64,000 nt of DNA, from contig JAYTMA010000167.1 of NCBI GenBank assembly GCA_043728975.1, positions 4,939 to 68,938 on the forward strand. Direction: 5' to 3'. The DNA is from a bacterium. GTDB lineage: Bacteria; Patescibacteriota; Minisyncoccia; Phycocordibacterales; UBA918. Under the pieces are notes generated by a model. It was given only the letters and a program-made list of their open reading frames with translations, searched no databases and was not told the DNA's origin. Positions within the stretch are counted from its first letter, which is position 1, and every line of letters starts with the position of its first letter. The position numbers and the translations under genes are program-made. Shown in pieces: positions 1 through 64,000 of this stretch.

Positions 1-307
1 GAGGCATTAAACAGAGAAGAGGTGGAATAGTATAAGATTTACAAGTTTTTTGCATTATACTAATTTAGGCATTGCATCATACTAAAATATACTGTAAGAT
101 GTATGAGAGAGACAAAAACAAAGGGATGAAAATGAGAAAGCCAACAAAAAACGAAGTTCAGCAGTATATCGAAATTGCATTGAGAATATCCCCGCAAATG
201 ACTTTCAATGGCTTAATTCGAGTAACTGCAAAGTACTTTCATTGTAAGCAAAACGAAATTAAAGAGATCTTAAAATAATAAAGGCCGAAAGGCAAAAAAG
301 GAATATC

Positions 308-487
308 ATGAAAAACTCAATCAAGTCTCTATTGGCCCTTAGCGTTCCAGTTTTTATCCTAGTGGCCCTTTTCAACGTAACTGTACTAAGAGCATACGCT
401 AACGCTGAAAAGATGAGCATCGCCAAACTGGTACGTCAAGCGCATGAGCAAGTTATCAATCGTTCCCCGGCTGTAGTAAAAAACTAA
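308..487 (+). CDS. small membrane protein (59 aa, one TM helix)
   Basis: ATG at 308 preceded by aaaaagga RBS. Hydrophobic segment SLLALSVPVFILVALF. Below the ORF-track length cutoff. Translated by hand. Confidence 0.4.
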   Translation: MKNSIKSLLALSVPVFILVALFNVTVLRAYANAEKMSIAKLVRQAHEQVINRSPAVVKN

Positions 488-671
488 AAAAGGCTTAAGA
501 TATGCAATCTGAAAAAGAATGACACTTCTCAAATGAGAGCTTAATTATCGGATATTTAATGCGCATAAATCGAATTAAACAAGACCCTGATTTAAGCGAG
601 CGAATGAAAAACGCTCTTATAAAAGAACTTGAGAATCAAATTAACAGTATTAAAAACAGAGAGGAAACAAA

Positions 672-905
672 ATGAAAACAATTACAGTAAACGCTATTTT
701 TCTCCCGGCACTTTTAAGAAACTGTTTTGATGCTCTTGCAGAAAAGGGAGACGCTAGGCAAATTGGCCTAGTAAGAAGTCTCTTAAGCGAAATTGGAGAG
801 CGTAGCGTTTCAATCTTAGAAGAGAGCGAAGTCACTTTTGAGCAATGCGAACTTAGCGGATCATGGGCCGGATGTGTTGAGATTGCAATAACCGAAGCTG
901 CTTAA
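672..905 (+). CDS. hypothetical protein (77 aa)
   Basis: ORF with agaggaaac RBS 5 nt upstream. Same strand as neighbours. Confidence 0.5.
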   Translation: MKTITVNAIFLPALLRNCFDALAEKGDARQIGLVRSLLSEIGERSVSILEESEVTFEQCELSGSWAGCVEIAITEAA

Positions 906-968
906 GCTAAAAATGGAACGATAAACAAAGGCTAATGATTACGAATTCACTAGCGAAGGAAAGAGAGC

Positions 969-1142
969 ATGAAACAATTAGAGACCTTAAGACAATCCTG
1001 GGAAAACATTCAAAGACTTCAACAAAGTTTTTCCCACCCTAAAAAAGTTCATTTACCAAACAAACAAGAGCGGCAAAAAGATTTAGAGCAAATGCGATTG
1101 CTCCAGTTTGAAATGGCCCTTAAGCAATTGCTTAAGCTTTAA
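969..1142 (+). CDS. hypothetical small protein (57 aa)
   Basis: ATG preceded by aaggaaagagag RBS. Translated by hand. Not in the track because it is shorter than 60 aa. Confidence 0.35.
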   Translation: MKQLETLRQSWENIQRLQQSFSHPKKVHLPNKQERQKDLEQMRLLQFEMALKQLLKL

Positions 1143-1156
1143 GCAAAGGCAAAAAA

Positions 1157-1288
1157 ATGAAAAGCATAGGTATTGGTACAATTTTAGCAGTGGTGATCAG
1201 CTATAGCATAAACAAGTCGATTCTTTGGGCATTTGTTCACGGCTTTTTTGGCCTCTTCTACGTCGCTTACTGGGGGATATTTCTATGA
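1157..1288 (+). CDS. small membrane peptide (43 aa)
   Basis: Hydrophobic 43-aa ORF. Its TGA stop overlaps the ATG of the recombinase gene (ATGA at 1285-1288). Confidence 0.35.
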   Translation: MKSIGIGTILAVVISYSINKSILWAFVHGFFGLFYVAYWGIFL

Positions 1289-1839
1289 AACTTAGCGCCA
1301 GTAAATTCATTTCGCTTAAAGAAGAAAACAAGCTCTTCTCGACAATCGCAAAGAGCAAAGAGAAGAGCGCTATAGTAGACTTAATGCTTTTTCAGCTCTT
1401 AAGCTTAACCGGCCTGCGAATTTCAGAGGCCCTTAACCTGAAGTGGGCCAACATTGGCGAGGACTACTTAACGATTGTTGAGCAGAAGAATGGCACAAAA
1501 AATGGCACTGTAATCATCGGCAACAAGCTTTTGCAACTTCTGGCCCAGTTTAAAGAGCTTAATCCTTACTCTTACTCAAGTTACTTGTTTAATTCTCGAC
1601 GAGGCCAATATTCTCGAACAAATGCGCATGAGAACTTGAAAGAATGGCTTAGAATTTCTGGATTGCGCTCAGATATATCATGCCACAATTTTAGGCATAC
1701 TTATGCAACTAGATGCTTAGATTCTGGATTACCGTTAACAATTGTAAGAGATCAGCTAAGGCATTCGAGCATTTCGGTTACAAGCGTTTACTTACACTTC
1801 TCTAAAGAGAGCAAAGACAAGCTCAAAGAAAACTTTTAA
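1285..1839 (+). CDS. tyrosine recombinase, catalytic domain only (N-terminally truncated integrase-like, 184 aa)
   Basis: Box I TGLRISEALNLKW (Arg), HNFRHTYATR (HxxR), RHSSISVTSVYLH (catalytic Tyr). No N-terminal core-binding domain. The track ORF from 1225 overlaps the upstream peptide, so the start is placed at internal Met 1285, coupled by ATGA. Confidence 0.75.
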   Translation: MKLSASKFISLKEENKLFSTIAKSKEKSAIVDLMLFQLLSLTGLRISEALNLKWANIGEDYLTIVEQKNGTKNGTVIIGNKLLQLLAQFKELNPYSYSSYLFNSRRGQYSRTNAHENLKEWLRISGLRSDISCHNFRHTYATRCLDSGLPLTIVRDQLRHSSISVTSVYLHFSKESKDKLKENF

Positions 1840-1886
1840 TTCAATACTGGGCCGATTTCCCCCGGCCTTTGTTTCTCTCCTCTCAA

Positions 1887-3054: not shown

Positions 3055-3471
3055 ATGAAAATTATAAAGCACGTTAACCGCTGGACTATCGAACTAGACA
3101 ACGGCAAACACTTAGGCCGCTTTAAAACTAAGCGCGAAGCTTTGGCCCAGTTAAATATTGAACTTGTCGAGTCTCTCTTAACTCCCGAGCAAAAAGAGAT
3201 TCGAGACTTGAAAGAAGAACTTGCAGAGGCCCTTAAGAGCATTTCAAAACTGGAACAAGACTTAGAAGAGAGCGAAATTGAAGTAAGAGCTTTGGAGGAT
3301 AAAGTTAGCGACCTAGAAGGCGAGCGCAATATTACAGACGAGGAAGAAGAGGTGATTTACTTAGTTGATGCTCTGAAAATTGCACAAGAGCGTTTTAACC
3401 TGGGCGTAGTTTCCGAAGCTGATACGATTCGAGAACTTCACGAAAAACTCGTTGAGCTAAAAGTGTCTTAA
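3055..3471 (+). CDS. coiled-coil hypothetical protein (138 aa)
   Basis: Start moved from the track's 3010 to ATG 3055 (TAATATG overlap with the upstream stop). Heptad-like E/K/L-rich sequence. Confidence 0.5.
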   Translation: MKIIKHVNRWTIELDNGKHLGRFKTKREALAQLNIELVESLLTPEQKEIRDLKEELAEALKSISKLEQDLEESEIEVRALEDKVSDLEGERNITDEEEEVIYLVDALKIAQERFNLGVVSEADTIRELHEKLVELKVS

Positions 3472-4088: not shown

Positions 4089-4337
4089 ATGAATACATCT
4101 AAAGAAATTGATTACTCTAAAGACGACGATTTAGTTTTTAAAATGGCCGACGAAGTTCAGAGTATTTTAGATAATCACAAGTACCATATTGAGCTAATGA
4201 TTAACGAGGTACTTAAAGGGCTTAATATAGATAAAGACACAGAATTAAGAAGAGACTGGGACGGAGTATCCTCTGCCGAGTACATGGTTCAGAAAATGAT
4301 TGGCGAAGTTTTAGCCAATGGAAAACCAAAACGCTAA
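4089..4337 (+). CDS. hypothetical protein (82 aa)
   Basis: Start set at ATG 4089, preceded by gggggaatagga. The track's longer ORF overlaps the upstream gene. Confidence 0.45.
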   Translation: MNTSKEIDYSKDDDLVFKMADEVQSILDNHKYHIELMINEVLKGLNIDKDTELRRDWDGVSSAEYMVQKMIGEVLANGKPKR

Positions 4338-4757: not shown

Positions 4758-5051
4758 ATGAGCAACACTGGAACACTTCACGGCTATACAATTTTCGAAG
4801 TTCTTAAGCTTGGCGGGCTAATTGTAGCTCACCACGAAGACTCTGGAATGATAGTTACTATCAATGAAGTGGTATTCAGCTATTGGATAAGCTTAGGTAA
4901 TGGTCGATTTGTAGGAGGCAACTCTTGCATACCATCAACAGTAGAGAAAGCAGGGGATTGTACGGATATTCGATTAGTAGTAGAAGTTGGGCAAGAATGG
5001 ATTGGCGAGTTGTTAGAAGAAGATGGTAGAGATGAGCCTACAAATGCTTAA
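4758..5051 (+). CDS. hypothetical protein (97 aa)
   Basis: ORF with tgaggggagaa RBS. Confidence 0.5.
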   Translation: MSNTGTLHGYTIFEVLKLGGLIVAHHEDSGMIVTINEVVFSYWISLGNGRFVGGNSCIPSTVEKAGDCTDIRLVVEVGQEWIGELLEEDGRDEPTNA

Positions 5052-6464: not shown

Positions 6465-6950
6465 ATGAGATTTGCACTACTTGGCGCTGAATTGCTCAAA
6501 CAGGACGTTTACAGCAACTACAGTCGCACTTGTAACTTAAGGAACGACTTAATCAAGGAAGGATTTGGGTTCGTTGGGGTGCAAAACGTAGCAGGGGCTA
6601 GAATTTCACAGATGTTCCTAGTGACTGGAATCACTGATGAAAACGAAGCCAAAGTCATTGCCATTGCCAAGAATTATGGGCAGAAGGCACTTTTGATCTC
6701 GAATATAGTGGGCAACATGGAAGTTGTGCTAACCGATGAAAATAAGTCCAAGGGACGGACTTTACTAGGAAAGCTAAAATCAGTCGATAAAGCCTCTGCA
6801 TCTTTGGCCCAGTTTTACATCATATTCGATGAGAATGGTCAACGTTACTACTACACAACGTCTTCTACTACTAACAGAAAGGAACAACGTGGAAAAGCAA
6901 ACAGCTCTAATGCAAGAATTCAAAGATCTGATCAAACTGGCACTCTCTGA
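6465..6950 (+). CDS. hypothetical protein (161 aa)
   Basis: ORF with aaaaggaactt RBS. The C-terminal 40 aa are low-complexity and overlap the next gene. Confidence 0.45.
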   Translation: MRFALLGAELLKQDVYSNYSRTCNLRNDLIKEGFGFVGVQNVAGARISQMFLVTGITDENEAKVIAIAKNYGQKALLISNIVGNMEVVLTDENKSKGRTLLGKLKSVDKASASLAQFYIIFDENGQRYYYTTSSTTNRKEQRGKANSSNARIQRSDQTGTL

Positions 6951-7122: not shown

Positions 7123-7644
7123 ATGGATGTTTTATTTATGGCTACACTTATTGATAAAATCAACACCTTCGAGAATCTTCCCCAGCAAACTGTAGAGAAC
7201 TTCAATTCTATTTTCCCCCAAACTCCTATCCTCTTCGGCAAAAACTCCGATGAAGTGGAGATTGGGAAAATCCTTGGCCCAGTTAATATGCGTGAGCTTC
7301 GAGTCGGGGAAGAAATTACCAAGCATTTGTTTAGTATTGTAACAACCACAACAGTCACAAGCGCCAATAAATCCGGCGAGTATGATGTTAACGGCACTCT
7401 AAGAAACAATGTAATGGAAGAAAAAGAAATGGAGCTGGACCCTTTTGAGTACAAGCTGTTGCAGTACTTTCGAGGAAGTCCTTCAACGTTCCACACTCAA
7501 AAAGAGATAGCCGAGAAGCTTAAGATCTCTCTGCGAAATGTCCAAAGCATTATTAAGCGCATGAAAGAGCGTGGATTAGTTTCTGCCGAACACTTAGTTA
7601 GCATTCACAAAATGGAAATCGTGGTTAACGAGGAATGGCTTTAA
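7123..7644 (+). CDS. winged-helix DNA-binding protein (173 aa)
   Basis: C-terminal EIAEKLKISLRNVQSIIKRMKERGLV is HTH-like. Confidence 0.5.
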   Translation: MDVLFMATLIDKINTFENLPQQTVENFNSIFPQTPILFGKNSDEVEIGKILGPVNMRELRVGEEITKHLFSIVTTTTVTSANKSGEYDVNGTLRNNVMEEKEMELDPFEYKLLQYFRGSPSTFHTQKEIAEKLKISLRNVQSIIKRMKERGLVSAEHLVSIHKMEIVVNEEWL

Positions 7645-7901
7645 TGAGCGAGCAAGAAATGAAACTGGGCCGAACACTAGGCTCTTCAGCGCTCTTCATT
7701 TACCAAGCGCTTAAATTTGCCCCAGAATCTACTCTGAGCGAGCTTGAGCTTGAGACTCGAATCAACATGAAAACAGTTCGTAAGCACCTAAAGAGCTTAA
7801 TGGAATGTAACGTGGTTATAAAGCGCGAAGTTCTTGGCACTTACAACGAGAGCTTTGCTTTTAGAAGTAACGATGATCATAATTCTTGGAAGCTGCATTA
7901 A
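7635..7901 (+). CDS. MarR-like winged-helix protein (88 aa)
   Basis: IYQALKFAPESTLSELELETRINMKTVRKHLKSLMECNVV has a wHTH pattern. Confidence 0.45.
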   Translation: MALMSEQEMKLGRTLGSSALFIYQALKFAPESTLSELELETRINMKTVRKHLKSLMECNVVIKREVLGTYNESFAFRSNDDHNSWKLH

Positions 7902-7996: not shown

Positions 7997-8221
7997 ATGG
8001 AACAAATCATCAAATACAAGAACCGCAAGTTCTACTCACGTTCACTCAATGCCACTGTTACCCTCACCGACATTCGCGATCTTATCAAAGAGGGCAAGTC
8101 TGTTCAAGTAACTGAACATGCAACTGGAACAGACATCACGGCTGAAACACTTGCGCTTGTACTTACGATCTCGGGGAATGTACCAGTTTCTACATTGCAA
8201 TCGCTAATTTTAAACGCATAA
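7997..8221 (+). CDS. hypothetical protein (74 aa)
   Basis: ORF with caagaggtaataaaa RBS, downstream of the promoter. Confidence 0.5.
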   Translation: MEQIIKYKNRKFYSRSLNATVTLTDIRDLIKEGKSVQVTEHATGTDITAETLALVLTISGNVPVSTLQSLILNA

Positions 8222-8264: not shown

Positions 8265-9461
8265 ATGAACATTAAGCAAACTTATCTCGCTCTCGACGCT
8301 TGTTTCGCAGCTAACCTCACTCCGCACTTGATTGGCCTTCACGGCATTGGTAAATCAGCAATCATTTATCAATATGCCGCTACTCGAGGTGCTGAAGTAA
8401 TTGAGGTGCGCGTTGGTCAAATGGCCGACGCTGGAGACTTGGTAGGACTTCAAGAGTTCGTTAAGTGTGAACTTACTGGCAAACCACATTCTACTCGCCA
8501 CATTCTACCTGATTGGATCATGAAACTCGTTGATGCGATCAAGCTCGGCAAGAAATTCATCCTCTTCTTTGATGAGCTTAACCGTGGACATAAGGATTTG
8601 CTCCAGGCTATTTTCGAAATCGTTTACGACATGTCTCTTAAAGGTGTGAAGTTCGCTAAAGACTTCGTAAACGTTGTAGCAGCTTCAAATCCTCCAACAG
8701 ATGATTACGCTGTTCTTGACTTCAGCGATAGCGCTTTTTCTGACCGCTTTGTTCATATCAAAATTGAGCCTTCAGTTCAAGAATGGCTTGACTACGGAAG
8801 AGCTGGGAACATTGAAAACAGTGTTACAGACTTCATCTCTGAATACGTGCCAATGCTTGAAAACTCTTCGCTCCAGTCTTTTGATCTTAAGTTTGTTAAA
8901 CCTTCACGCCGCTCTTGGGACCGAGTATCTAAGATTCTCAGAGTTAAAGCAGACAAGGAAATTGAGCTTGAGCTTATCATGGGAATAGTAGGACTTGAAC
9001 CAGCAATGGCATTTCAAAAGTTCCGCGACACTTATTTCAAGTCTCTTAAAGCTGATGAAGTTCTTAACAGCTATAAGAAAGTGAAGAAAGACATTATTAG
9101 CGCTGTCGAGAAAGGCCGCACAGATATGCTCGGGACTTTGAATGAAGAACTGGGCCAGATGTTCAAAGGCATGACCGGCTTAACCGCTGCTCAAGCTGAT
9201 AACCTCGCTGACTTAGTTCACGACTTGCCGATTGAACATGCTTATGCGCTTGCAATCATCATCAAGGAAAACCCGAACTGCACAATGTCTGTAACAGGAC
9301 TTACGAAAGCTAAGCTCGTTGAAGGCACTGACGGCAAACTCGGAATGTTCCAGCATAAGAAGTTCGTTGACAGAGTTCTCTCAGCCCAGATTAAGCGAGA
9401 AGAAATGAAGAAAGAAAATAATATTGAAGCTAAAGCATCTCCAACATCTGTTCCATTTTAA
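8265..9461 (+). CDS. AAA+ ATPase, MoxR/AAA_5-like (398 aa)
   Basis: Walker A GLHGIGKS. Walker B ILFFDELNR. Adjacent VWA-domain partner gene. Confidence 0.8.
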   Translation: MNIKQTYLALDACFAANLTPHLIGLHGIGKSAIIYQYAATRGAEVIEVRVGQMADAGDLVGLQEFVKCELTGKPHSTRHILPDWIMKLVDAIKLGKKFILFFDELNRGHKDLLQAIFEIVYDMSLKGVKFAKDFVNVVAASNPPTDDYAVLDFSDSAFSDRFVHIKIEPSVQEWLDYGRAGNIENSVTDFISEYVPMLENSSLQSFDLKFVKPSRRSWDRVSKILRVKADKEIELELIMGIVGLEPAMAFQKFRDTYFKSLKADEVLNSYKKVKKDIISAVEKGRTDMLGTLNEELGQMFKGMTGLTAAQADNLADLVHDLPIEHAYALAIIIKENPNCTMSVTGLTKAKLVEGTDGKLGMFQHKKFVDRVLSAQIKREEMKKENNIEAKASPTSVPF

Positions 9462-11398: not shown

Positions 11399-11583
11399 AC
11401 TGGGACAAGCCATTACCACTGCAGCAGATAACCCCATTAGGGCTTAACGCTCATCATGGAGGCTCTTTCACATTTGAGCAGTGGAAAGGGTTGATTAAGA
11501 GAAGTAGCGTTACAGAGTCTTATGAAACGTACCTAACCTACTGCAAACTCATGTCTTCCTACCTTGGTCAAGCACTGTTGTAA
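11383..11583 (+). CDS. small protein with degenerate family tail (..SYLGQALL)
   Basis: C-terminus resembles the SPLYQALK family. Start could be ATG 11383 or 11395. Confidence 0.35.
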   Translation: MEICMNWDKPLPLQQITPLGLNAHHGGSFTFEQWKGLIKRSSVTESYETYLTYCKLMSSYLGQALL

Positions 11584-11669: not shown

Positions 11670-12029
11670 ATGAATTCGATCTTATCCTGCATTTACTTCT
11701 ACTCAGCCCTTAACGGCATTAACCCTCAAATCACTCAAGCCGTGATTAAAGTCGAGAGCAACGGCAATGCAAGAGCTGTTGGCCAAGTTGGCGAGCTAGG
11801 ACTTATGCAAGTTCGCCCAGAGCATGTCCCAGTTTCACGGCTAATGCTCTTCGACCCTTGCACAAACATAAAATATGGAACAGCTATTCTAAAGCGAGCA
11901 ATGAACAAGTGCAAACATCAGCTCGATAACACTTGGATAAATTGCTTTAATTTAGGTGTCCGAGGCGGTTCTCGTCTGAAGCACCCAAAGAAATTTCTAT
12001 ACTACAAAAAGATTGTCGCCAATCTATAA
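11670..12029 (+). CDS. lytic transglycosylase, SLT domain (119 aa)
   Basis: E-x-G-LMQV catalytic motif (VESNGNARAVGQVGELGLMQV). ctcaggaggagcgc RBS. Confidence 0.8.
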   Translation: MNSILSCIYFYSALNGINPQITQAVIKVESNGNARAVGQVGELGLMQVRPEHVPVSRLMLFDPCTNIKYGTAILKRAMNKCKHQLDNTWINCFNLGVRGGSRLKHPKKFLYYKKIVANL

Positions 12030-12934: not shown

Positions 12935-13321
12935 ATGAATCTCTTAGTACAAATTATCACAGCTATTTTCTTCATCCTAACAGGCGTATTTCTTATATTC
13001 CTCGCCTTTTCTCTGTTCCAGCTTTATCGAATCGAGAAGCTTGACGACGAAGAGCTTGATGCGGGCTTTGAGGAGATCACCGAAGAAGAAAATGGACCAG
13101 AAGCTCCTGAAATCTTCAAGCACTCATACGATCTTCAGCTCTTGTATTTAGCGAGAGAAAGGGCATTGGGACAGTTTGTTGAGAATTGTAAGAAGCCTTT
13201 GCTTACTACTAAATCTCACGACTTGGAACATGCTTTCCTTTGGGTAGGTTCGAACGAGGGTTTTGAATACTGGAACGATCTATACGGCAGGTATTATGAT
13301 TTTCTAGAAGGCAAAGAATGA
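12935..13321 (+). CDS. membrane-anchored acidic protein (128 aa)
   Basis: N-terminal TM segment IITAIFFILTGVFLIFLAFSLF, then acidic. Confidence 0.5.
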   Translation: MNLLVQIITAIFFILTGVFLIFLAFSLFQLYRIEKLDDEELDAGFEEITEEENGPEAPEIFKHSYDLQLLYLARERALGQFVENCKKPLLTTKSHDLEHAFLWVGSNEGFEYWNDLYGRYYDFLEGKE

Positions 13322-22649: not shown

Positions 22650-22676
22650 TAATTCCCTCACGAACAGGATGTTCCA

Positions 22677-34455: not shown

Positions 34456-34457
34456 TT

Positions 34458-52997: not shown

Positions 52998-55900
52998 TTA
53001 TCTGTACCCACGTTTAGATACTTCTCTAGGCTCTAATGAAATTCCCAAAAGCTTGTACTGTTCTCGGGCATTAATATGCTTGAAGCGAACGATTAAGAAT
53101 CTGCAACGAGACTTGTCTCTGGGAATTAAAGTAATAACTGGAACAGAGTTTCCTCCGCCTCCAAAGACTGAATCAAGCCATGGAAAGCTTGCCCAAAAAC
53201 CTGGGCCAGATAATGTGAAAGCTATTTCTTCGAAGTTTGCACTTCTGTCAGAAGAGTAGGCCACAGTTCCGCCGTAGATTGTCCCATGATCGAAAATGAG
53301 AGTGCCCTTATCAACTTGCTTAGTTGTTTCAGGAGCGCCGAAATGTTGTGGGGCCCATTCTACTTCTGTGGGAATGCCTTTGTAGATCTCAATGTCGCCT
53401 TGGTTTAACCATGGAACAAAGTTAACTGTTACAAGGTTTGAAGTGCTAGATACTTCTTTCACAAGTACTTCGTAAGTTAAAAGGCTTGTAACCTTCTTAT
53501 AAGTTTTGAGATTTGTCCCAGATGTTAATCCGTTAAGCTCGTCAATGAGTAGGTTGTAATCTGTTTTAAGACTTTCGATGTCGTTAGAACCAGAAGGAGT
53601 TGTGAAAGTTCCTAAGTTCGCATCGGCATTTAGCTTAGCTACTAGGTTCAAAATAGCATTTGCGAAGATTGTCCCAACTCCCACTTCAAGTGAAGCGCGG
53701 TAATTTGAATCTGCTGGGCCAGAGTCCTTATCGAGTTTAGATAAGAGCCTGTTGAATTTAGGAACTGTTACGTATTGAGTTTGTACAATTACATCCCCAA
53801 CTTCAACATCTAGGACAGAGCTTATTCTGAAGCTATTACCTTCAAAAGAGCCATCTTCAATTGTGCGAGTGAAGTTTCTATCAGCGTAGTCTTGTCTCTC
53901 TCCGTCTTTTCTTTCTTGTTCAACGTAAAGACGGTTTGTCCCACTTCCTAAATACAGTCTATCATCGCCTTGGTTTACAATTCCACAAGTGTTGGTTTTT
54001 AGCCATCTTGTCCAGGTGTTTGTAATAGTGTTGTATCGAAAGCATTGAGTGGCAGAGGTTGTGTCTGATTTTAATGTTGGAAGCCAAAGAAGGTAAGATC
54101 TATCAGACTCGTAAGCAACTCCGAAAGCGAGGGTAGAGAAAGCATATGAGAACGTACTAACTTTCTTAATCTGGTCTTCGATGTTACGAGATACAATAGA
54201 TACGCCAGTCTCAGAGATTGAAACAACTCCTTGAGTGGTTAAACAGTATATGAGGTTGTTTAAAACAACCGCTGAGTCAGGAGCTGTGAGAGTTGCGGAG
54301 TTATCAAGAAGCCTTACAGAGAAATCTGGAGCAGTTGCCCCAGTTACAATATATACCCCGTCTTGCTTGAGAACGAATAAGTTATCGCGAAGTGGGAGTA
54401 TTCTCAGAATTTGCTTATCTTTTGAGCCAACATCAATGTAGTTAACTGAGGGAACAGCTTCTGGTTGAGAAACCTTTGAGAAATAGATTCTATTAGGAGC
54501 CTCGTTGTTATCTGAAGCATTTGTAATTGGAAAAACACCAGTTCCGTTCCAATATGGAACTTCTGGCGTGAACTCAGCAACAAGAGATAAATCAGAAATA
54601 GCAACGTAGAAATCAACGTCTTGTAAGCTCTTTGCTTCGAGTACAATTTTTCCCGGCAAGTCATCAGTACCTGAAATATATTGAGCAAAAACCGGGGAAG
54701 AAGAGTCTTTGTTGATAACTCTTACAAGTGATCGAACTGTTAAATCAATACTTGTTGCAAGTGAAGAGCTTACTGAAAGTAGTGCTTTTCTAGTAGCAGC
54801 GTCTTCTCCAGAACCTTCTGCAAAAACTGATACTGCCCAAGCTCCTCCTGGCGAAACTCCAAAAGAAGGGTTTGTTACATTTCCAGAATCTGTGCAAGTT
54901 ATGCGAACTTTGTTTGTAGATTGGTTTACAGCTATGAAGTCTGTATTTAGTGCAAGAGCTTCTGTAATCGCAAGTCTTGTACCGTCAATAGTATTAGGGT
55001 ATAGATGGAGCGGGACTTTTATCCCATATTTACCGGCCATAACAGGGTCTGCATTTGTCCCAGTTTTATCAAACCATAAATAATAAGCTCTTTCATTATT
55101 GGCCGAGTTTAAGTAAATGGTGGAGCTTGCTACAGTATTAGTTGTTGTATCGACTGTAATATCGGTGATCTCTACATCTCCTACAAAAGTATAGGTATGG
55201 CTTGTTGAGCCTTGTTTGACGTAGAACTTTGTTGAGCCTGAAACGAAGTTATCAACCGAAAGCACTGAAAGGCTTAGTCGATGTACTTCTTTAGTATTTG
55301 AGTAGAATGTGGAGTTTCTGAAAAGGGCAATGTCTGTGCAAATTGGCGGAGTTTCATTTGCCTGAGAAATACCTTGGCCCGAGAATTGGTTAGTGCTTAA
55401 GTATGCTCCAGATTGTCTGAAAGTTTCTGGAGTATTGTCTTCTACTGTAATCTCTTTAGCGAGTATATCAGCAGCAGTGATAGGAGCTTCATAAACAAAT
55501 TGCTGCTCGTCTCCTGGATCAATGTCTGATAGAGTTTGCCCAATATCTTCTACTGTAATTGTCCCAGTTCTATAAATTTGGTAGAAGTAGTCTGTTGTAA
55601 GCGATGCTGGTAATGTGAATATAAGCTTAGCGAGAGAAGGTGTTCCAGTTGTTTTTGAGCCGTCGATAACTTTGGTTATGCGAACTTTAGTTGAGGCCAG
55701 AGAACCTTGAGAAGCATCTACGCATTCCCCAGTTACTGTGATTGTAACTTCGACTTCTGTAGTAGAGAGCTTAGTTGTAACTTCAGTAGGCAGTGCATTT
55801 TGAAGAGCATTTGCAAATAGTATTGCCGCCGTATCGTTGCTGGTAGCTGTTTTAATGTTAACTTCAATAGCAGTTCTATCGAGAGTGTTGGCATTAATTG

Positions 55901-56615
55901 GAACGGTTCCTGTGCCAGATTTGTTAAACCAAGCAAAGTAGCCTTCAGTAGGAGTGTCGAAAAGGAAGTAATCTCCGTCAACGATTGTGCTGTAGGTGAG
56001 AAAGTTAACCGTGAATATTTCAGACTGGACCGAGTCAGAAGCGGAGTTAGTGAGAACAGTGCGAGGAGAAGGGTAGCCGAGGATAAGATTTGAGTTAGCG
56101 TCTTTAGTGCCGTAAACAATTCTATAAGCTACCTTAGACTGGGCCGGAAGAAATCCAGCAGCGTCTGGTAAAAGCTTACCTTGTAAATCGAAAGCTTTAA
56201 TACCGCCAGCGTTTGTAATAAGAGCGGTAGCTAGAGAAGCTGCATCTTTAACCGAGATCTTCTTCACGCCGTCAGTAGTTGTGAAGTAGAAATTACCGTT
56301 AGCTTCAACAGCTTTAATTCTTAACCCAGCTTTTAACTCGTAATAACTTCCAGCAAAAGGTGTAAACACGCCAGCGCCATTGGAATCAAAAGCCATAGTC
56401 GAAGCATAATGTTCCAGTATTCTGTTTTTGTACGTGAATAGTTGTTTTGCCGCTGAAGTTGAAGCTGCTGTAGAGTACTCTTTAAAGCCTCTGCGAGATT
56501 GAATTAAGTTATCAAAGTCTATTATACAGTTGTCAGCAACAGTTAATGCACCGTCAGGGCGATTAATCTCTGATGAGCTTGTGACTAGACCTTTACTTAC
56601 GTTAAGAGTGGCCAT
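52998..56615 (-). CDS. large tail fibre / baseplate-like structural protein (1205 aa)
   Basis: T/S/V/N-rich, beta-rich composition. Largest ORF in the window. Confidence 0.55.
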   Translation of the reverse strand: MATLNVSKGLVTSSSEINRPDGALTVADNCIIDFDNLIQSRRGFKEYSTAASTSAAKQLFTYKNRILEHYASTMAFDSNGAGVFTPFAGSYYELKAGLRIKAVEANGNFYFTTTDGVKKISVKDAASLATALITNAGGIKAFDLQGKLLPDAAGFLPAQSKVAYRIVYGTKDANSNLILGYPSPRTVLTNSASDSVQSEIFTVNFLTYSTIVDGDYFLFDTPTEGYFAWFNKSGTGTVPINANTLDRTAIEVNIKTATSNDTAAILFANALQNALPTEVTTKLSTTEVEVTITVTGECVDASQGSLASTKVRITKVIDGSKTTGTPSLAKLIFTLPASLTTDYFYQIYRTGTITVEDIGQTLSDIDPGDEQQFVYEAPITAADILAKEITVEDNTPETFRQSGAYLSTNQFSGQGISQANETPPICTDIALFRNSTFYSNTKEVHRLSLSVLSVDNFVSGSTKFYVKQGSTSHTYTFVGDVEITDITVDTTTNTVASSTIYLNSANNERAYYLWFDKTGTNADPVMAGKYGIKVPLHLYPNTIDGTRLAITEALALNTDFIAVNQSTNKVRITCTDSGNVTNPSFGVSPGGAWAVSVFAEGSGEDAATRKALLSVSSSLATSIDLTVRSLVRVINKDSSSPVFAQYISGTDDLPGKIVLEAKSLQDVDFYVAISDLSLVAEFTPEVPYWNGTGVFPITNASDNNEAPNRIYFSKVSQPEAVPSVNYIDVGSKDKQILRILPLRDNLFVLKQDGVYIVTGATAPDFSVRLLDNSATLTAPDSAVVLNNLIYCLTTQGVVSISETGVSIVSRNIEDQIKKVSTFSYAFSTLAFGVAYESDRSYLLWLPTLKSDTTSATQCFRYNTITNTWTRWLKTNTCGIVNQGDDRLYLGSGTNRLYVEQERKDGERQDYADRNFTRTIEDGSFEGNSFRISSVLDVEVGDVIVQTQYVTVPKFNRLLSKLDKDSGPADSNYRASLEVGVGTIFANAILNLVAKLNADANLGTFTTPSGSNDIESLKTDYNLLIDELNGLTSGTNLKTYKKVTSLLTYEVLVKEVSSTSNLVTVNFVPWLNQGDIEIYKGIPTEVEWAPQHFGAPETTKQVDKGTLIFDHGTIYGGTVAYSSDRSANFEEIAFTLSGPGFWASFPWLDSVFGGGGNSVPVITLIPRDKSRCRFLIVRFKHINAREQYKLLGISLEPREVSKRGYR

Positions 56616-58409: not shown

Positions 58410-58900
58410 AAGCTTTGGCCCAGTATTATATCAATGTCTTTGGGAGTGAGATTGTTTAAGTCTTTGTCTATTTTGTAGCCATTTCTAACAAGAATTTTCC
58501 CAATCAGCTCAGAGCAGTTAACACCTGTATTAAAAGGGTTAGTTTTAAGCTTGAGTACGTCTGCTATAAGAACTCCCGCGTTCTGCCAAAAGCCGTAAGA
58601 GTCGGAAGCGTTATCCACACAAAACTGGAGCATTTCTATGTAGCTCGCTTCGCTTATTTGAATTGTATAGGCCTTGATTTCCCGAGCATGACTTTGCCAT
58701 CGTTTTTCGCCAATGAACCTCACACCGCTTCCAACAGATTCGTATTTGATATTTCGATCAATTGTAGCTGAGCGGAAGCCGAGATAAGTGTGGCTATAAG
58801 GAGTTTTCATATAGGCTCTTAATAGCCAGCTACCTATTGCAAACTTCTTTTTGGATTTTGAAAAGCCTATGGTGATTGTTTTCATTGAATGTAAGGTCAT
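58406..58900 (-). CDS. hypothetical protein, possible cell-wall hydrolase accessory domain (164 aa)
   Basis: ATGA-coupled to the endolysin. Confidence 0.45.
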   Translation of the reverse strand: MTLHSMKTITIGFSKSKKKFAIGSWLLRAYMKTPYSHTYLGFRSATIDRNIKYESVGSGVRFIGEKRWQSHAREIKAYTIQISEASYIEMLQFCVDNASDSYGFWQNAGVLIADVLKLKTNPFNTGVNCSELIGKILVRNGYKIDKDLNNLTPKDIDIILGQSL

Positions 58901-60276: not shown

Positions 60277-61446
60277 TTACTCCAAACTTGTGATTAATGT
60301 AATATCCACTCTTGCCCCAGTAGTTACTGCTGTGTTAGCACTTGTTCCTATAACTATCTCTTCCCCTGCCGAAAAAATGAAAGGATCACGAAAAAATTCG
60401 GTTTCAAATTTATTCACAACAGATGAGGAACAAGTGAATAAGTGAATGTTTCCAACTATATTAAATGCCCCTGTGACAGGAGTGTTACTGACGCTTGTAA
60501 TGTCTTGCAAACCGACATCAATGTTGGTTATTTCTACATTGTCTGGTTTTGTAATTCGATTATCTGCTATTGTGTTTCCACTACCTGAAAGAGCCAGTTC
60601 TACCTGCCCCCCTAAAGCTACGGCTGGAGTTACGGTTACATACTTTGTTTCTCCATAAATGTTTTTATAAATAACATCTAAAGGAGTGGCAGCAGTAATT
60701 GCGCTTAGAGTGTCTACCATAATTGCAGAGGGTGCTAGATTGGCAGCATAAGCATCTCCATTAACACTACCGCTAGTGGTGTTTCCTGCAGGAGCAGTTA
60801 TAGGGTTTAAGTTAGCATCTGCTTTAATATCAACGAAGCTTGTTAGTTCTGTTTCACCTGCAAGGGTTTGTGTATTAGAAGCTCCGTTAGCTGTGGTCCT
60901 GAAGATGCGATAGTATAAAGCCCCTGTAACAGCGGTCCAACTGAGAGATACGGAGTTCAAAGTTCCTGTTAGCGTCACGGAAGCTTCTGTTCCGGTAACT
61001 GCGCCAATTGCGTTGTAGGCTGCTATTTTATATCTATAAATGGAAAGCGGAGTTAATCCTGACGTTGCAATAGTTTTAGCAGTTAAAGTAGGAGCTACAG
61101 GAATTGCCAAAGCCGTAGCAGAAAATTTCCAAAGCACAGTCCTTTTATAAAGATGTAGGTAAGTAGACGATGCTGATGTTTTGCATATTACACCTCGTAC
61201 TTTAAGTGTTTTACCTACTGGGACAATATAATTTAAAAGAGGCTTAATCGCAGGATAGGCAGGTGCTGTGGAAATAGCTCCAAAATCAATGTTGAAAAGC
61301 TGTGATGTACCGATAGTTTGAACAGTGGAAACTGTATTAAAACTGCCGTCAGCATTAACTTTTGCCCTGCTTTGTGAAATAGGATCAACTATAACTACAG
61401 TCGTGTTGTCGTTTTCGTCAGTCCTGTTTGAATCATTTAGAGGCAT
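60277..61446 (-). CDS. structural protein with two FN3-like domains (389 aa)
   Basis: LSIYRYKIAAYNAIGAVTG and SVSLSWTAVTGALYYRIFRT. Confidence 0.5.
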   Translation of the reverse strand: MPLNDSNRTDENDNTTVVIVDPISQSRAKVNADGSFNTVSTVQTIGTSQLFNIDFGAISTAPAYPAIKPLLNYIVPVGKTLKVRGVICKTSASSTYLHLYKRTVLWKFSATALAIPVAPTLTAKTIATSGLTPLSIYRYKIAAYNAIGAVTGTEASVTLTGTLNSVSLSWTAVTGALYYRIFRTTANGASNTQTLAGETELTSFVDIKADANLNPITAPAGNTTSGSVNGDAYAANLAPSAIMVDTLSAITAATPLDVIYKNIYGETKYVTVTPAVALGGQVELALSGSGNTIADNRITKPDNVEITNIDVGLQDITSVSNTPVTGAFNIVGNIHLFTCSSSVVNKFETEFFRDPFIFSAGEEIVIGTSANTAVTTGARVDITLITSLE

Positions 61447-61642
61447 TTTTCTTCGCCTTTGGTGTAACAGGGGCTGGCGTTTCTTCCAGCTCCCGCTTAA
61501 TCTTTTCTTCTAAGCTTTTAAGTAAAATGAAAGCGGTATGAATTTCGATGATTGCATTACCATCAAGTCCGTCCCACTTTGCTTTGGAAAGCGCGGCGAA
61601 TATCTTTTCGACTGTTGTTAAATCTCTATTATCAAAGCTCAT
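61433..61642 (-). CDS. small coiled-coil protein (69 aa)
   Basis: Track ORF overlapping its neighbours. Confidence 0.4.
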   Translation of the reverse strand: MSFDNRDLTTVEKIFAALSKAKWDGLDGNAIIEIHTAFILLKSLEEKIKRELEETPAPVTPKAKKNASK

Positions 61643-61659
61643 ATATTCCCATTCTGTTG

Positions 61660-62484
61660 TTAAGCTATTTCAACAATTCGTACATCTTGTGTACCAGATT
61701 CTGAAATTGCAAATATTGGTAAGTCTTTTCCGAAAGGCATTTCTAAAAAAGCACCTACCGAAACTCTTAATCCGTTAGCTACAGTTACCGAACCTGAAAA
61801 CCCAATGAAGATGGATTTTGTACCTAAGTTCTGGATCATTATGTTAACTCGACCTGCGAGAGGAGTTGCTACAAGTTGCGAGGCAGTGGCGGTTACAGAG
61901 GCTGCAGTTACCTTAGAGCCAACGTTAGGCGCAGTATTTACATAAACTCTTCTGTACATGTCTGAGATAACATTTGCTTTGTTACCAGAAGCAGAAACTG
62001 CTGAAAGAGCACCATCAAGAGCCCGAGAGCCCATTTTTAAAGGGTTCTCTGAGTCAACAGCATTGTCGGCAATGTCTGATTCAAGTCTAATGTCTGCTAC
62101 AACTTCCAATCTTCCTGCATTGAATGTAAACTGATCTGTCTTAGTTTTAATTCCTGCTAGAGTTGCTTGAGTTGCGTAATCTTTTCCATCCAATGATGTC
62201 AAAAGCGTAATTTGAGAAGCTTGATTGGCCGCAGTTGCAACTTTTCCATCAATTGAAGTTAGCTTAGTGATCTGAGTATCAAGCTTTGTGTTTGTTGAAA
62301 CAATATCGGCATCAATAGTCGCTAAAGCTGCAATAGTTGCGGCATCTTTTACATCTAACTCTTGCTTAGCACCGTTCGTAGTTGAAGTGATCTTAACGCC
62401 GCTTGAGCCTAAGATGTGTGCCCCAACTTGATCGCTACCCGCAATGTCAGTTTCTGAAAAAACTAATTTGTCTTTACTTAACAT
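61660..62484 (-). CDS. structural protein with internal repeats and beta-rich C-terminus (274 aa)
   Basis: Repeats KLTSIDGKVATAANQASQI and LLTSLDGKDYATQATLAGI. Confidence 0.5.
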   Translation of the reverse strand: MLSKDKLVFSETDIAGSDQVGAHILGSSGVKITSTTNGAKQELDVKDAATIAALATIDADIVSTNTKLDTQITKLTSIDGKVATAANQASQITLLTSLDGKDYATQATLAGIKTKTDQFTFNAGRLEVVADIRLESDIADNAVDSENPLKMGSRALDGALSAVSASGNKANVISDMYRRVYVNTAPNVGSKVTAASVTATASQLVATPLAGRVNIMIQNLGTKSIFIGFSGSVTVANGLRVSVGAFLEMPFGKDLPIFAISESGTQDVRIVEIA

Positions 62485-62498
62485 TTACCATCCCCCTG

Positions 62499-63464
62499 TT
62501 ATGACCAAGACATTAACTCTATTGTTAAGTCTGGTGTGCTTGAACTAACGTATATGATTCTTGATGTTCCATTTCTTTCTAACGAGTCTTCCGAGTATGT
62601 AACTCCCATTCCTACGGTTAAGTAGTTCGTGGAAGTTTCGCCAGCATTCCAAGACAACTGGAGCTTGCCTTTTGAATCTCTTACTCGAAGTGTGAACTTG
62701 AGCGTGTTTATTGGAAGAGTTATCGAGTATTCCTGATTAGCTATTGCCATTGGAATGTTCTGAATGCTTGCTACGTTTGCAGCAGCTTCTGATACAGTTA
62801 TTTCAGCGTTACTTCTTTCGAACTTGCCAGAGAAAATGTTGAAGTACATTCCCTTGAGAACTTGCCCTTGGTATAAAGGACTTCCGTTGTCGTACTCGAT
62901 TGCAATTGAATTAGTTTCAACTTGAGTACCTGGAGTGTTGGCGATTACAAATCCAGTGTTTGTCGTAGAAGCGTCAACTAAGCCAAATCCAACAGTGTTA
63001 ATTTGAACAACGGCTGAAGCTCTTTGTGAGAAGAACTTACTGGCCCAGTTTTGTTTTATGAGCTGGTGGATTACTAGAGCAACTACCGAAGCCGCATCGT
63101 TCTCTTGAATGTCGGCAGCAAGTCCAATAGCGTTTGGTAAAGCTGGGTCTGTGCCAATTCCGTCAACTCTGAACCAAATGTAATGCTTCTTATTATCTGG
63201 AGCAGAACTGAAGGCAATATACTTGCCCGCGAGAGAAAAGTTAACGTCTGGCTTAACTCCAATTTCTGTTTTCTGAGGAGATACTCCGCGAAAGTAAGTT
63301 ACGCTAAGAGGGTTATTTAACCCGTCGTAAGTCGCTCTAAAATGCGTGAAGTACTTATCCGCAACTGAATTAGTATCAGTTGTTCTGATGCTCTGACCGT
63401 GGAAGTCGTGAACTTCTTTTACGATTAGACCTGGATCGTACTGGCTGTTTTTGTTGTTAGACAT
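62499..63464 (-). CDS. virion structural protein (321 aa)
   Basis: Track ORF. Confidence 0.5.
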   Translation of the reverse strand: MSNNKNSQYDPGLIVKEVHDFHGQSIRTTDTNSVADKYFTHFRATYDGLNNPLSVTYFRGVSPQKTEIGVKPDVNFSLAGKYIAFSSAPDNKKHYIWFRVDGIGTDPALPNAIGLAADIQENDAASVVALVIHQLIKQNWASKFFSQRASAVVQINTVGFGLVDASTTNTGFVIANTPGTQVETNSIAIEYDNGSPLYQGQVLKGMYFNIFSGKFERSNAEITVSEAAANVASIQNIPMAIANQEYSITLPINTLKFTLRVRDSKGKLQLSWNAGETSTNYLTVGMGVTYSEDSLERNGTSRIIYVSSSTPDLTIELMSWS

Positions 63465-63476
63465 GAGGTCTTTTTA

Positions 63477-63959
63477 TTATTTGCCAAAACCTTGAAGGGC
63501 TTTTAATCGGGCAAGGTGAGCTGGTGAATTATCGTAATTAACTCTAGCGTTGTGCTCATTCAGCATGAAGCGCTCTTCGTCTCTGTTTCCGGCAGTTTCT
63601 GGTTTGATAGCTTCATAAGCCTGTCCCAAAACTGGAATATCACCTGCAAGTTCTTCCGCAGCCATTGCGCTATCACCTTGAAGAGCTGCATAACTAGCTC
63701 CTGCGAAAGGAACTACGCCCATGACTTTCTTACTTATATTTCTTAAGGCTTGAGACTTTGCTAGTTTTTCAGCAATGTTCTTTTGAAATTCATTTCCGGA
63801 GAGCTGCGGTACAACTTCTTTTGTTTTTATGTGCTCAGAAACATTTCTCATTGGGATTTCAAAGCCTTCAGAGAGCTTCTTGTCCTTAACATTGCTCTGG
63901 CTAGAGTTGGTCAGCTTGCTTAGCTCGAATTGTCGAGGGGATTCTTTTTTAGGTTTCAT
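63477..63959 (-). CDS. virion-associated protein (160 aa)
   Basis: Track ORF. Confidence 0.45.
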   Translation of the reverse strand: MKPKKESPRQFELSKLTNSSQSNVKDKKLSEGFEIPMRNVSEHIKTKEVVPQLSGNEFQKNIAEKLAKSQALRNISKKVMGVVPFAGASYAALQGDSAMAAEELAGDIPVLGQAYEAIKPETAGNRDEERFMLNEHNARVNYDNSPAHLARLKALQGFGK

Positions 63960-64000
63960 CTTTTTGTTTCTCTTTCGACATCTCGTCGATAGTTAGGGAT

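Follow-up and report, generated by a model that had tools for sequence, protein, structure and literature searches.

A hyper-abundant, evolving family of DNA words in an uncultured SU10-like phage lineage

The 64-kb stretch of contig JAYTMA010000167.1 analyzed here (64,000 nucleotides, called the window below) belongs to the ~89-kb genome of an uncultured SU10-like podovirus, in which a short asymmetric DNA word recurs hundreds of times. This phage lineage is characterized by a whole evolving family of such hyper-abundant words, and the family is larger than that described in the original prediction, which was made from the letters of the window alone and reported about 30 copies of a decamer, YGGCCCAGTT, in both orientations and in all coding frames. 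The actual unit is a single asymmetric element of ~14 bp, of which the decamer represents only one among four variants enriched to an equal degree, and relatives of the phage use shifted sets of words, here termed dialects. The word family belongs to no known class of hyper-abundant words. The reading favored here, to which a probability of roughly 0.4 is assigned, is that a sequence-specific factor that binds duplex DNA docks at the word and that the word is selected for coverage of the genome.

In the window, GGCCCAGT occurs 33 times (19 copies on the + strand and 14 on the - strand), compared with 0.55 ± 0.64 copies (maximum, 3) in dinucleotide-preserving shuffles, 4.1 ± 1.4 copies in shuffles of synonymous codons within genes (z = 21), 2.8 ± 0.9 copies in codon-order shuffles (z = 33), and about 1.0 copy expected under a second-order Markov model. 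The excess, which holds against all of these codon-shuffled and Markov backgrounds, is 8-fold over the strictest of them and 30- to 60-fold over those based on composition, and the over-representation noticed earlier is thus borne out. A pyrimidine stands directly 5' of GGCCCAGT in all 33 copies. The full decamer YGGCCCAGTT is counted 26 times, and the relaxed form (G/T)TCCCAGTT, put earlier at about ten more copies, is counted 14 times. The positions reported at that time were right to within 9 bp, and a single copy, at 31008, had been missed.

Three sister words, ACTGGAGC (28 copies), ACTGGAAC (26 copies), and ACTGGGAC (21 copies), are enriched in the window equally with ACTGGGCC (33 copies), which is the GGCCCAGT of the original prediction. 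In this strict form, the four words amount to 108 copies in 64 kb, compared with 27.8 ± 3.8 copies expected from synonymous shuffles and 12.3 ± 2.5 copies expected from codon-order shuffles, while the remaining twelve ACTGGNNC words are at background (27 observed versus 23 expected). A shorter kernel, TGG(GC/AG/GA/AA)C(A/G), the sites of which can be regenerated with the corresponding regular expression on both strands, is present at 246 sites in the window (3.84 per kb), 138 of them without the exact AC prefix; on average, there is one strict site per ~590 bp and one site of the TGG..C-R kernel per ~260 bp. Under a second-order Markov model, the ratio of observed to expected counts (obs/exp) climbs with the length of the word, from 5.6 for TGG..CA to 15 for CTGG..CA, 40 for ACTGG..CA, and 77 for AACTGG..CA. 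A substitution scan found that the T, the two G's, and the downstream C are essentially invariant, that a purine follows this C, with A being commoner than G, and that A and then C are favored ahead of TGG as a graded preference only, and the single-substitution neighbors of the core have obs/exp ratios of ~1.

When all kernel sites were aligned, only positions -6 to +7 carried information, the A-tract was one-sided, and no second half-site was found within ±80 bp of the kernel sites. A protein-binding site that is single and asymmetric has such a layout. The element consists of an A-tract (-6 to -2), a C, TGG, one of the dinucleotides GC, AG, GA, and AA, a C, a purine, and often an A, in short 5'-(A-tract)-C-TGG-(GC/AG/GA/AA)-C-R, with the consensus AAAAC-TGG-R-V-C-A and the 14-mer form AAAACTGGGACAA. 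Several simpler origins were rejected. A promoter and a bipartite, type I-like site both lack a partner element at any fixed distance; a protein-motif or codon-pair origin is ruled out by the use of all six phases; a repeat or paralog origin is ruled out by flanks that carry no information outside -6 to +7; and an assembly artifact is ruled out by the identity of assemblies from two different samples. Closely spaced motif triples number 0 to 1 per 82 kb even in the present phage (genome-wide counts here and below cover the window plus its flanks, 82 kb).

Relative to the genes, 49 of the 108 strict sites lie on the sense strand, 53 lie on the antisense strand, and 6 are intergenic, and all six phases are used; at least 108 strict copies are thus carried in 64 kb, about 94% of them in coding sequence. 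The claims that copies fall in all coding frames and that the signal is one of the DNA level therefore stand, as the copies are on both strands, in all frames, and above the levels of both the synonymous-codon and the codon-order shuffles. The strict sites show no strand bias (51:57; runs test, z = 0.03), and their orientation shows no polarity to the left or right of the scaffold junction (81:71 and 51:43). Judging by GC skew, most of the window appears to have a G-rich + strand, and the motif has no matching strand preference. One site overlaps a terminator-like hairpin (1849 to 1868), in agreement with the copy described near 1848, and one convergent pair lies at 30996/31008, whereas other close pairs are depleted. 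In the flanks outside the window, the word is found at 1.0 to 1.6 per kb.

Resident genes carry the kernel at an even density of 3 to 7 sites per kb. Two genes of 36% GC contain none: the SIR2-like gene, in a low-GC island, has 0 sites versus 4.0 expected, and one EndoVII/HNH gene has 0 sites versus 2.7 expected, which together make 0 versus 6.7 expected. Both genes look recently acquired, and their lack of sites is as expected if incoming DNA is free of the word at first and gains it in the course of its residence. The spacing of the sites beyond ~100 bp looks Poisson, gaps of 60 to 80 bp are over-represented (28 versus 16 expected), and gaps of ≤40 bp between neighboring sites are depleted (16 versus 39 expected; 0 of 2,000 simulations were as low). 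This short-range exclusion fits either a footprint or a benefit that falls off when another site is already close by.

Relatives of the phage were compared over ~20 kb around the capsid gene of each. Among eight relatives with major capsid proteins (MCPs) 61 to 86% identical to that of the present phage, six have more kernel copies than synonymous shuffles of their own sequence (z = 3.7 to 8.9), with balanced orientation. The word sets of the relatives are shifted with respect to one another: the main words are CTGGGGCA and TGGGACAA in L034 (capsid identity, 86%), CTGGGACA in L121 (78%), GTGGRACA in L035 (76%), ACTGGAGC in L036 (71%), GATGGAACA in L122 (67%), and CTGGAACA, ATGGGACA, and TGGGGCA in L039 (61%). 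The GGC center, which gives the GGCCCAGT of the original prediction, is peculiar to the present phage. A scan of metagenome contigs yielded 53 further family members, among which the kernel is enriched only patchily. A more distant subclade (L135, L136, L126, L129, L141, L037, and L120) over-represents another word, TAAGGGTGTT, with 5 to 9 copies versus 0.2 to 0.5 expected per ~20 kb, and L120 also over-represents GGGGTGTTT. At orthologous positions, 11 of 72 changed sites are now another member of the family, compared with a neutral expectation estimated at roughly 5%, which is suggestive of a change of sites into other family members above the neutral level.

The signal did not appear in the controls. 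Loci found through PolA (Flavobacterium phage immuto plus 27 IMG/VR loci) have no motif; they were rejected as genome-level relatives and kept as negative controls only. No comparable signal was seen in 80 bacterial loci with ice-binding homologs, and none was seen in a Silvanigrella phage. IMG/VR scans with two single structural proteins gave no matches. Phage immuto (L001; accession number MW353175), the cultured phage nearest by PolA, has no over-represented word of such a kind, and its positions 18607 to 37015 hold a complete 7-deazaguanine DNA-modification cluster (FolE, QueC/D/E/F, and DpdA).

The original prediction pointed to GGCC, the target of HaeIII-type C5-cytosine methyltransferases (MTases), and to the C5-MTase encoded in the window as a possible cause of the enrichment. 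This is not supported. GGCC is present in only one of the four family variants, and L035, L039, and L122 have zero GGCC sites in ~20 kb each and keep the TGGRACA kernel, while several other relatives are strongly depleted of GGCC. Stretches of 7 to 21 kb wholly without GGCC were seen in these three and also in L124, L132, L135, L150, L151, L153, and L159. The absence of GGCC in many family members points to a strong HaeIII-type restriction pressure on the lineage. In the present phage, GGCC is not avoided (197 sites; obs/exp, 1.3), and 77 of the 197 sites lie inside the motif. Full-length MTase homologs were assigned, indirectly, to the GGCC-tolerant relatives L034, the P0006/L121 phage, and the P0012 phage, and, in the same indirect assignment, none among the matches listed was assigned to a zero-GGCC relative. 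The MTase-bearing L034 and L121 show no enrichment of the GGC center. Given the persistence of the kernel with or without the MTase, together with this lack of GGC-center enrichment in MTase-bearing relatives, the MTase can be set aside as a reader of the motif. Plausibly, judging from the distribution of GGCC and of the MTase homologs, it licenses a GGCC variant that relatives must avoid rather than selecting for the word, and the link between GGCC and the C5-MTase is permissive, not causal.

The MTase gene has further peculiarities. The conserved motifs IX and X lie at residues 87 to 134, and motifs I to VIII lie at residues 153 to 311. The true start lies at 34562 (MKLGKDV...); 35 residues on, the reading frame is interrupted by a G9 tract (34458 to 34466), and either G10 or G7 at this tract restores a protein of 352 amino acids that is colinear with the homolog P0122 (76% identity). 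A second G9 tract lies upstream (34670 to 34678), where one extra G opens an open reading frame (ORF) resembling a target recognition domain (RVYDSNGISPALT; region 33505 to 34950, - strand). Both G9 tracts have the same length in an assembly from another sample, and they are either a slippage-prone on/off switch or a systematic under-call of homopolymers.

Restriction targets are expected to be avoided, and many 6-bp palindromes are nearly eliminated from the phage (observed/expected counts in 82 kb): GCATGC (0/34), CAGCTG (2/64), GCTAGC (2/43), ATGCAT (2/42), GAGCTC (8/76), ATCGAT (4/34), and GATATC (2/28). Of the asymmetric word GGTTGC, likewise, there is just 1 copy where 27 are expected. 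Such near-elimination of many 6-bp palindromes would make blanket hypermodification of the DNA, to which the word had also been tied, unlikely. In its statistical behavior, the word is compatible with an architectural role or one like that of an uptake signal, both of which were named in the original prediction. As a whole, the interpretation in the original prediction is partly supported.

In the favored reading, a sequence-specific factor would dock on duplex DNA at the word; the factor would most likely be encoded by the phage lineage, and its specificity would drift along with the lineage. Selection would act on the number and spread of the sites and not on the individual site, and the purpose of docking could be to mark, organize, or shield the phage's own, otherwise unmodified, DNA. 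This reading rests on the asymmetry of the site, the indifference to orientation and frame, the maintenance of density rather than of position, the local exclusion, the drifting specificity, and the motif-free state of acquired genes, and it is from this pattern that we infer a protein reader, its encoding by the phage, and an effect of its binding. Several points weigh against it. The candidates for a reader in the window are only generic helix-turn-helix (HTH)-type proteins (MarR-like, winged HTH, and PhaR-like), and a host-encoded reader is possible. We know of no phage precedent for ~4 specific binding sites per kb inside coding sequence. The sites have no positional conservation, with 6 of 78 identical in relatives compared with 14.1% of control 7-mers, so that the argument by which selection was separated from biased repair in the case of HIP1 is unavailable here. 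In addition, the short-range exclusion was not replicated in the less dense relatives (29 versus 33.5 expected) and, being seen in the present genome only, is treated as suggestive. A broader and more tentative proposal is that the SU10-like family of ~90-kb phages may tag its own unmodified DNA with a fast-evolving word read by a lineage-encoded protein. If so, the tag would be a viral counterpart of self-recognition in the style of uptake sequences or Chi, with possible uses in telling the phage's own DNA from that of the host, in protection against nucleases, or in genome organization, and the dialects could isolate related phages from one another.

Because the sites are not positionally conserved, the main rival of the docking reading is context-dependent biased repair, an unlikely but serious alternative in which a process similar to very-short-patch (VSP) repair, with a site-specific nuclease and patch repair, would convert near-cognate words and the motif would be a neutral by-product. 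The fast turnover of sites is in its favor, and so is the state of CTGG/CCAG as the most over-represented tetranucleotide together with the depletion of CTAG-containing pentamers, a combination that resembles the signature of VSP repair in Escherichia coli. The phage encodes the C5-MTase (frameshifted at the G9 tract) and a predicted DUF559 PD-(D/E)XK nuclease, a family that we take to be related to Vsr-type nucleases, and the recently acquired genes are without the word, as a slow genome-wide drive predicts. However, the transition precursors of the word are not depleted (obs/exp, 1.0 to 1.4, no lower than the transversion neighbors), and the ratios of ~1 for the single-substitution neighbors likewise count against a mutational sink. 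Biases from VSP repair are modest, far below the 16- to 77-fold enrichment seen here with a specificity of ~14 bp and with exactly 4 of the 16 center dinucleotides; a mutational drive does not predict the depletion of close site pairs, and MTase-free relatives still carry the kernel. An improbable alternative is a Chi-like attenuator, in which a host helicase-nuclease of the RecBCD/AddAB type would read the word on a single strand and switch from degradation to repair. What defines Chi is that a motif protects by being present, and Chi sites are known to build up in some phages; the word is G-rich on one strand and has CTGG in common with GCTGGTGG, and the Chi sites of Haemophilus form a degenerate family. 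The avoidance of palindromes shows heavy restriction pressure, which makes double-strand breaks and exonuclease attack plausible, both orientations would be needed since breaks such as restriction cuts can fall anywhere, and dialects could track different hosts. What speaks against a Chi-like role, which the original prediction had also raised, is the lack of polarity anywhere, including around the scaffold junction, a density 3 to 7 times that of Chi-rich phages, a recombination module of the phage's own (ERF and PD-(D/E)XK), canonical Chi words that are absent or at background, and a GC skew with no matching strand preference of the motif.

Alternatively, the word may be the target of a DNA-modifying enzyme other than the C5-MTase, of phage or host, with dense sites spreading protective marks. 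In favor of this are selection for coverage, the lack of any orientation preference, and the asymmetry and enzyme-like length of the site. MTase and type IIG specificities drift as the specificity here does between relatives, and many ORFs of the phage are without an assigned function. Yet the C5-MTase is the only modification gene found in the 82 kb examined, the near-elimination of palindromes shows that type II enzymes can still attack the DNA, and a mark every 260 to 590 bp would protect little against enzymes that cut elsewhere. We give this explanation a low probability, below that of a Chi-like attenuator. Sites of priming or replisome loading, read on a single-stranded template by a primase-like protein or a DnaB-like helicase, are a poor prospect. 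Sequence-specific primases are known, that of T7 using GTC-based pentamers; if the recognition sequence is long, the genome would have to hold many copies on each strand, where sub-kilobase spacing is needed, and the lineage encodes its own replication proteins. Known primase sites, however, are only 3 to 5 nt long and need no enrichment, the GC skew points to one predominant replication direction over most of the window and predicts a strand bias that is not seen, and no link was found between the motif and primase-like or helicase proteins. Least probable is the proposal made originally, that the word is the GGCC target of a C5-MTase or HaeIII-type restriction-modification (R-M) system or a host uptake sequence carried by the phage. 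The share of GGCC sites inside the motif, the tolerance of GGCC, and the encoded C5-MTase agree with the former, and copies in either orientation and in all frames with lineage dialects are the statistics of the latter. Three of the four variants are nevertheless without GGCC, the kernel persists in zero-GGCC relatives with no MTase homolog among the matches listed, and MTase-bearing relatives do not enrich the GGC center. No uptake sequence known to us (ATGCCGTCTGAA and AAGTGCGGT) resembles the word, and a phage of lytic type would not obviously be under a drive of uptake followed by recombination.

The phage is present in the samples ERZ28573557, ERZ27315170, and SRR14689449. The window matches, without any difference, part of a metagenomic scaffold of 90,721 bp, the ends of which repeat 1,450 bp (window positions 37565 to 39014), giving a genome of ~89.3 kb. 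The repeat spans part of the SIR2-like gene in the motif-free low-GC island and coincides with the turn of the GC skew; it is either a genuine terminal repeat or has arisen through circular assembly. The genes of the window include those for PolA, a class II ribonucleotide reductase, a DnaB-like helicase, a primase-like protein, an ERF annealase, a PD-(D/E)XK nuclease, two ClpP-like proteins, several HNH/EndoVII endonucleases, a dUTPase, the C5-MTase, a SIR2-like protein, and an ice-binding-like protein, and the - strand carries a block of novel structural genes. The MCP gene lies just outside the window, and its product has 1,225 homologs, many of them on uncultured contigs of 80 to 130 kb, some of which have SU10-type capsid, adaptor, and P22-type portal domains. 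No cultured relative was found by the capsid, the best match being a Silvanigrella phage with 24.6% identity. Shine-Dalgarno-like sequences precede 37 of 59 genes, which points to a host that uses them and lies outside the Bacteroidota. The SIR2_2-domain gene could have a role in defense or counter-defense. The ice-binding-like gene has its nearest bacterial homologs, 46 to 59% identical, in many phyla, including psychrophilic Clostridium species, and gave no assignment of a host.

Other sequence features of the genome were also noted (Table 1). At least 13 paralogous small proteins of 62 to 96 amino acids, with no match to a Pfam or PHROG family, are encoded on the + strand; many start with (M)xKFKVGDRVV, and nearly all end with ...SPL(Y/M)(K/Q/E)AL(K/R). 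The conserved S-P-L codons (TCC-CCC-CTx) of this family account for several C6 runs, and the excess of C/G runs is largely due to them. An element of the form TTGCAY-N5-(G)TG-TTAATATAG or TATTAATAC, present in ~10 mostly intergenic copies compared with 0.6 expected, may be a phage-specific promoter, distinct from the motif studied here. TTGACA is depleted, as are sigma-70-like promoter matches (22 versus 35.5 in shuffles of the 82 kb). Throughout the genome and in all lineage members, AGCT is found at 2 to 2.8 times the expectation from base composition and at the expectation given trinucleotides, and AAGCTC/GAGCTT are enriched while GAGCTC and CAGCTG are nearly absent.

Table 1. Positions in the window of the strict word sites and of other features of the phage genome
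Feature	Position	Strand	Remark
ACTGGGCC site	1542..1549	-	GGCCCAGT of the original prediction
ACTGGGCC site	1846..1853	+	overlaps terminator-like hairpin
ACTGGGCC site	3144..3151	-	
ACTGGGCC site	6806..6813	-	
ACTGGGCC site	7276..7283	-	
ACTGGGCC site	7664..7671	+	
ACTGGGCC site	9149..9156	+	
ACTGGGCC site	14169..14176	-	
ACTGGGCC site	16664..16671	-	
ACTGGGCC site	17064..17071	-	
ACTGGGCC site	18662..18669	-	intergenic
ACTGGGCC site	23529..23536	-	
ACTGGGCC site	26373..26380	+	
ACTGGGCC site	27862..27869	-	
ACTGGGCC site	29337..29344	+	
ACTGGGCC site	29777..29784	-	
ACTGGGCC site	30135..30142	+	
ACTGGGCC site	31008..31015	-	missed originally; convergent with site at 30996
ACTGGGCC site	33295..33302	+	intergenic
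ACTGGGCC site	33497..33504	-	
ACTGGGCC site	37294..37301	-	
ACTGGGCC site	42088..42095	+	
ACTGGGCC site	43909..43916	+	
ACTGGGCC site	45082..45089	-	
ACTGGGCC site	45941..45948	+	
ACTGGGCC site	47744..47751	-	
ACTGGGCC site	48739..48746	+	
ACTGGGCC site	48816..48823	-	
ACTGGGCC site	49165..49172	+	
ACTGGGCC site	51310..51317	+	
ACTGGGCC site	56138..56145	+	
ACTGGGCC site	58417..58424	-	
ACTGGGCC site	63042..63049	-	
ACTGGAGC site	1100..1107	-	
ACTGGAGC site	8870..8877	-	
ACTGGAGC site	16115..16122	-	
ACTGGAGC site	19513..19520	+	
ACTGGAGC site	19641..19648	-	
ACTGGAGC site	24328..24335	-	
ACTGGAGC site	26759..26766	+	
ACTGGAGC site	26852..26859	-	intergenic, adjoins promoter-like TTAATATAG
ACTGGAGC site	29484..29491	-	
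ACTGGAGC site	29889..29896	-	
ACTGGAGC site	37109..37116	+	
ACTGGAGC site	39716..39723	+	
ACTGGAGC site	41207..41214	-	intergenic
ACTGGAGC site	41456..41463	-	
ACTGGAGC site	41658..41665	+	
ACTGGAGC site	41845..41852	-	
ACTGGAGC site	41941..41948	+	
ACTGGAGC site	45194..45201	+	
ACTGGAGC site	48077..48084	-	
ACTGGAGC site	48286..48293	+	
ACTGGAGC site	49482..49489	+	
ACTGGAGC site	49527..49534	+	
ACTGGAGC site	50706..50713	-	
ACTGGAGC site	51393..51400	-	
ACTGGAGC site	52044..52051	+	
ACTGGAGC site	52419..52426	+	
ACTGGAGC site	58624..58631	+	
ACTGGAGC site	62657..62664	+	
ACTGGGAC site	4255..4262	+	intergenic
ACTGGGAC site	11399..11406	+	
ACTGGGAC site	11826..11833	-	
ACTGGGAC site	13963..13970	+	
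ACTGGGAC site	14065..14072	+	
ACTGGGAC site	14576..14583	+	
ACTGGGAC site	14992..14999	-	
ACTGGGAC site	17525..17532	-	
ACTGGGAC site	20789..20796	+	
ACTGGGAC site	22862..22869	-	
ACTGGGAC site	33926..33933	-	
ACTGGGAC site	35767..35774	-	
ACTGGGAC site	40536..40543	-	
ACTGGGAC site	41135..41142	+	
ACTGGGAC site	42232..42239	-	
ACTGGGAC site	43630..43637	+	
ACTGGGAC site	46179..46186	-	
ACTGGGAC site	51515..51522	-	
ACTGGGAC site	55057..55064	-	
ACTGGGAC site	55561..55568	-	
ACTGGGAC site	61217..61224	+	
ACTGGAAC site	344..351	-	
ACTGGAAC site	3249..3256	+	
ACTGGAAC site	4767..4774	+	
ACTGGAAC site	8123..8130	+	
ACTGGAAC site	13269..13276	+	
ACTGGAAC site	13447..13454	+	
ACTGGAAC site	14516..14523	-	
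ACTGGAAC site	16401..16408	-	
ACTGGAAC site	17363..17370	+	
ACTGGAAC site	19022..19029	-	
ACTGGAAC site	21025..21032	+	
ACTGGAAC site	22671..22678	-	intergenic
ACTGGAAC site	23137..23144	-	
ACTGGAAC site	25487..25494	+	
ACTGGAAC site	30833..30840	+	
ACTGGAAC site	30996..31003	+	
ACTGGAAC site	31190..31197	+	
ACTGGAAC site	35265..35272	+	
ACTGGAAC site	35857..35864	-	
ACTGGAAC site	42609..42616	-	
ACTGGAAC site	43104..43111	+	
ACTGGAAC site	44077..44084	-	
ACTGGAAC site	47450..47457	-	
ACTGGAAC site	53137..53144	+	
ACTGGAAC site	55642..55649	-	
ACTGGAAC site	56411..56418	-	
MarR-like protein	7123-7644		generic HTH-type
Winged HTH protein	7635-7901		generic HTH-type
PhaR-like N-terminal domain	7997-8221		generic HTH-type
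Ice-binding-like (DUF3494) gene	12057-12884		signal-peptide-like N-terminus
DnaB-like helicase	19426-20442		
EndoVII/HNH-type endonuclease gene	20902..21609	+	36% GC, no kernel sites
Primase-like protein	21599-22447		
C5-cytosine MTase, circularly permuted	33505..34562	-	motifs IX-X ahead of I-VIII
SIR2-like gene (SIR2_2 domain)	38103..39155	-	36% GC island, no kernel sites
DUF559 PD-(D/E)XK nuclease	L033 616-1158		upstream of window, same genome; 28 bits vs cutoff 20.6
Small-paralog ORF starts	6055, 14678, 15673, 19204, 20429, 20614, 26080, 26292, 31144, 39250, 42334, 42603, 42812	+	
Promoter-like element	~4222, 5801, 7928, 11599-11604, 20844, 26861, 29569, 36235, 43351		

Chi, uptake sequences, HIP1, stoperators, and R-M targets were compared with the word family, and each fails at least one defining feature. 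The closest likeness in statistics is to the DNA uptake sequences (DUS) of the Neisseriaceae and the uptake signal sequences (USS) of the Pasteurellaceae, which are also short asymmetric words found about once per kb or more densely, in all frames and in either orientation, with occasional copies in terminator hairpins and with a preference that extends into the flanks. Related lineages differ in DUS/USS dialects by one or two bases (PMC3630211), and the phage family has lineage-specific dialects too, by analogy only. However, the present word is carried by a virus and not by a competent bacterium, with no obvious cycle of uptake and recombination; it is denser (1.7 to 3.8 per kb) and has no resemblance to known uptake sequences. 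HIP1 (GCGATCGC) of cyanobacteria is an octamer over-represented 15- to 300-fold in all frames with non-random spacing, and its function has been unsolved for decades; in a study of HIP1, positional conservation separated selection from replenishment by biased repair. The large over-representation in every reading frame is shared, but HIP1 is palindromic, embeds the targets of orphan MTases, and is conserved in position between genomes, whereas the present word is asymmetric, is not positionally conserved, and is not tied to the MTase, which is sporadic in the lineage.

Like Chi, the word is G-rich, asymmetric, and well above chance in a phage, and its presence could be protective. In the Chi-rich lambdoid phages LLS and MD8, the orientation of the sites is 20:3 and 32:0, the sites cluster toward one end at ~1 per 1.9 kb, and there is typically no Rec module; polarity is a criterion for the detection of Chi, as is over-representation against oligonucleotide backgrounds. 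The present phage has neither polarity nor end clustering and carries an ERF annealase and a PD-(D/E)XK nuclease. Five proteobacterial Chi candidates have only CTGG in common with the word and occur 0 to 7 times in 82 kb. The stoperators of the Cluster A mycobacteriophages also consist of many copies of an asymmetric site, of ~13 bp, across a phage genome; a phage protein reads the site, and the consensus drifts between related phages along with the protein. Stoperators number 20 to 30 per genome and are oriented with transcription, in contrast to the far more numerous and largely coding copies of the present word, with 49:53 relative to transcription. As for R-M targets, the presumed GGCC site of the MTase is not in all variants, and, by the indirect assignment above, the MTase does not track the motif across relatives. 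Polar architecture signals of the KOPS and AIMS types differ in that the word has no extreme strand skew switching at an origin or terminus.

Selected hyper-abundant words such as uptake sequences, Chi, and HIP1 are rare, and each has revealed a mechanism of DNA handling. The present case shows that behind one enriched k-mer there may stand a whole degenerate family and that an MTase encoded close to a word with GGCC may permit this word without being its cause. The natural series of dialects across relatives offers a direct route to the reader through the correlation of dialect with protein sequence. Should there be a reader, it would reveal the means by which a phage whose DNA is ordinary and open to restriction marks or protects its genome. 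Should repair have produced the word as a by-product, biased gene conversion would have shaped a viral genome here with unusual strength and specificity. Compared with the known systems, the word stands apart in being virus-borne, asymmetric, free of orientation bias, and 3 to 7 times denser than Chi in Chi-rich phages.

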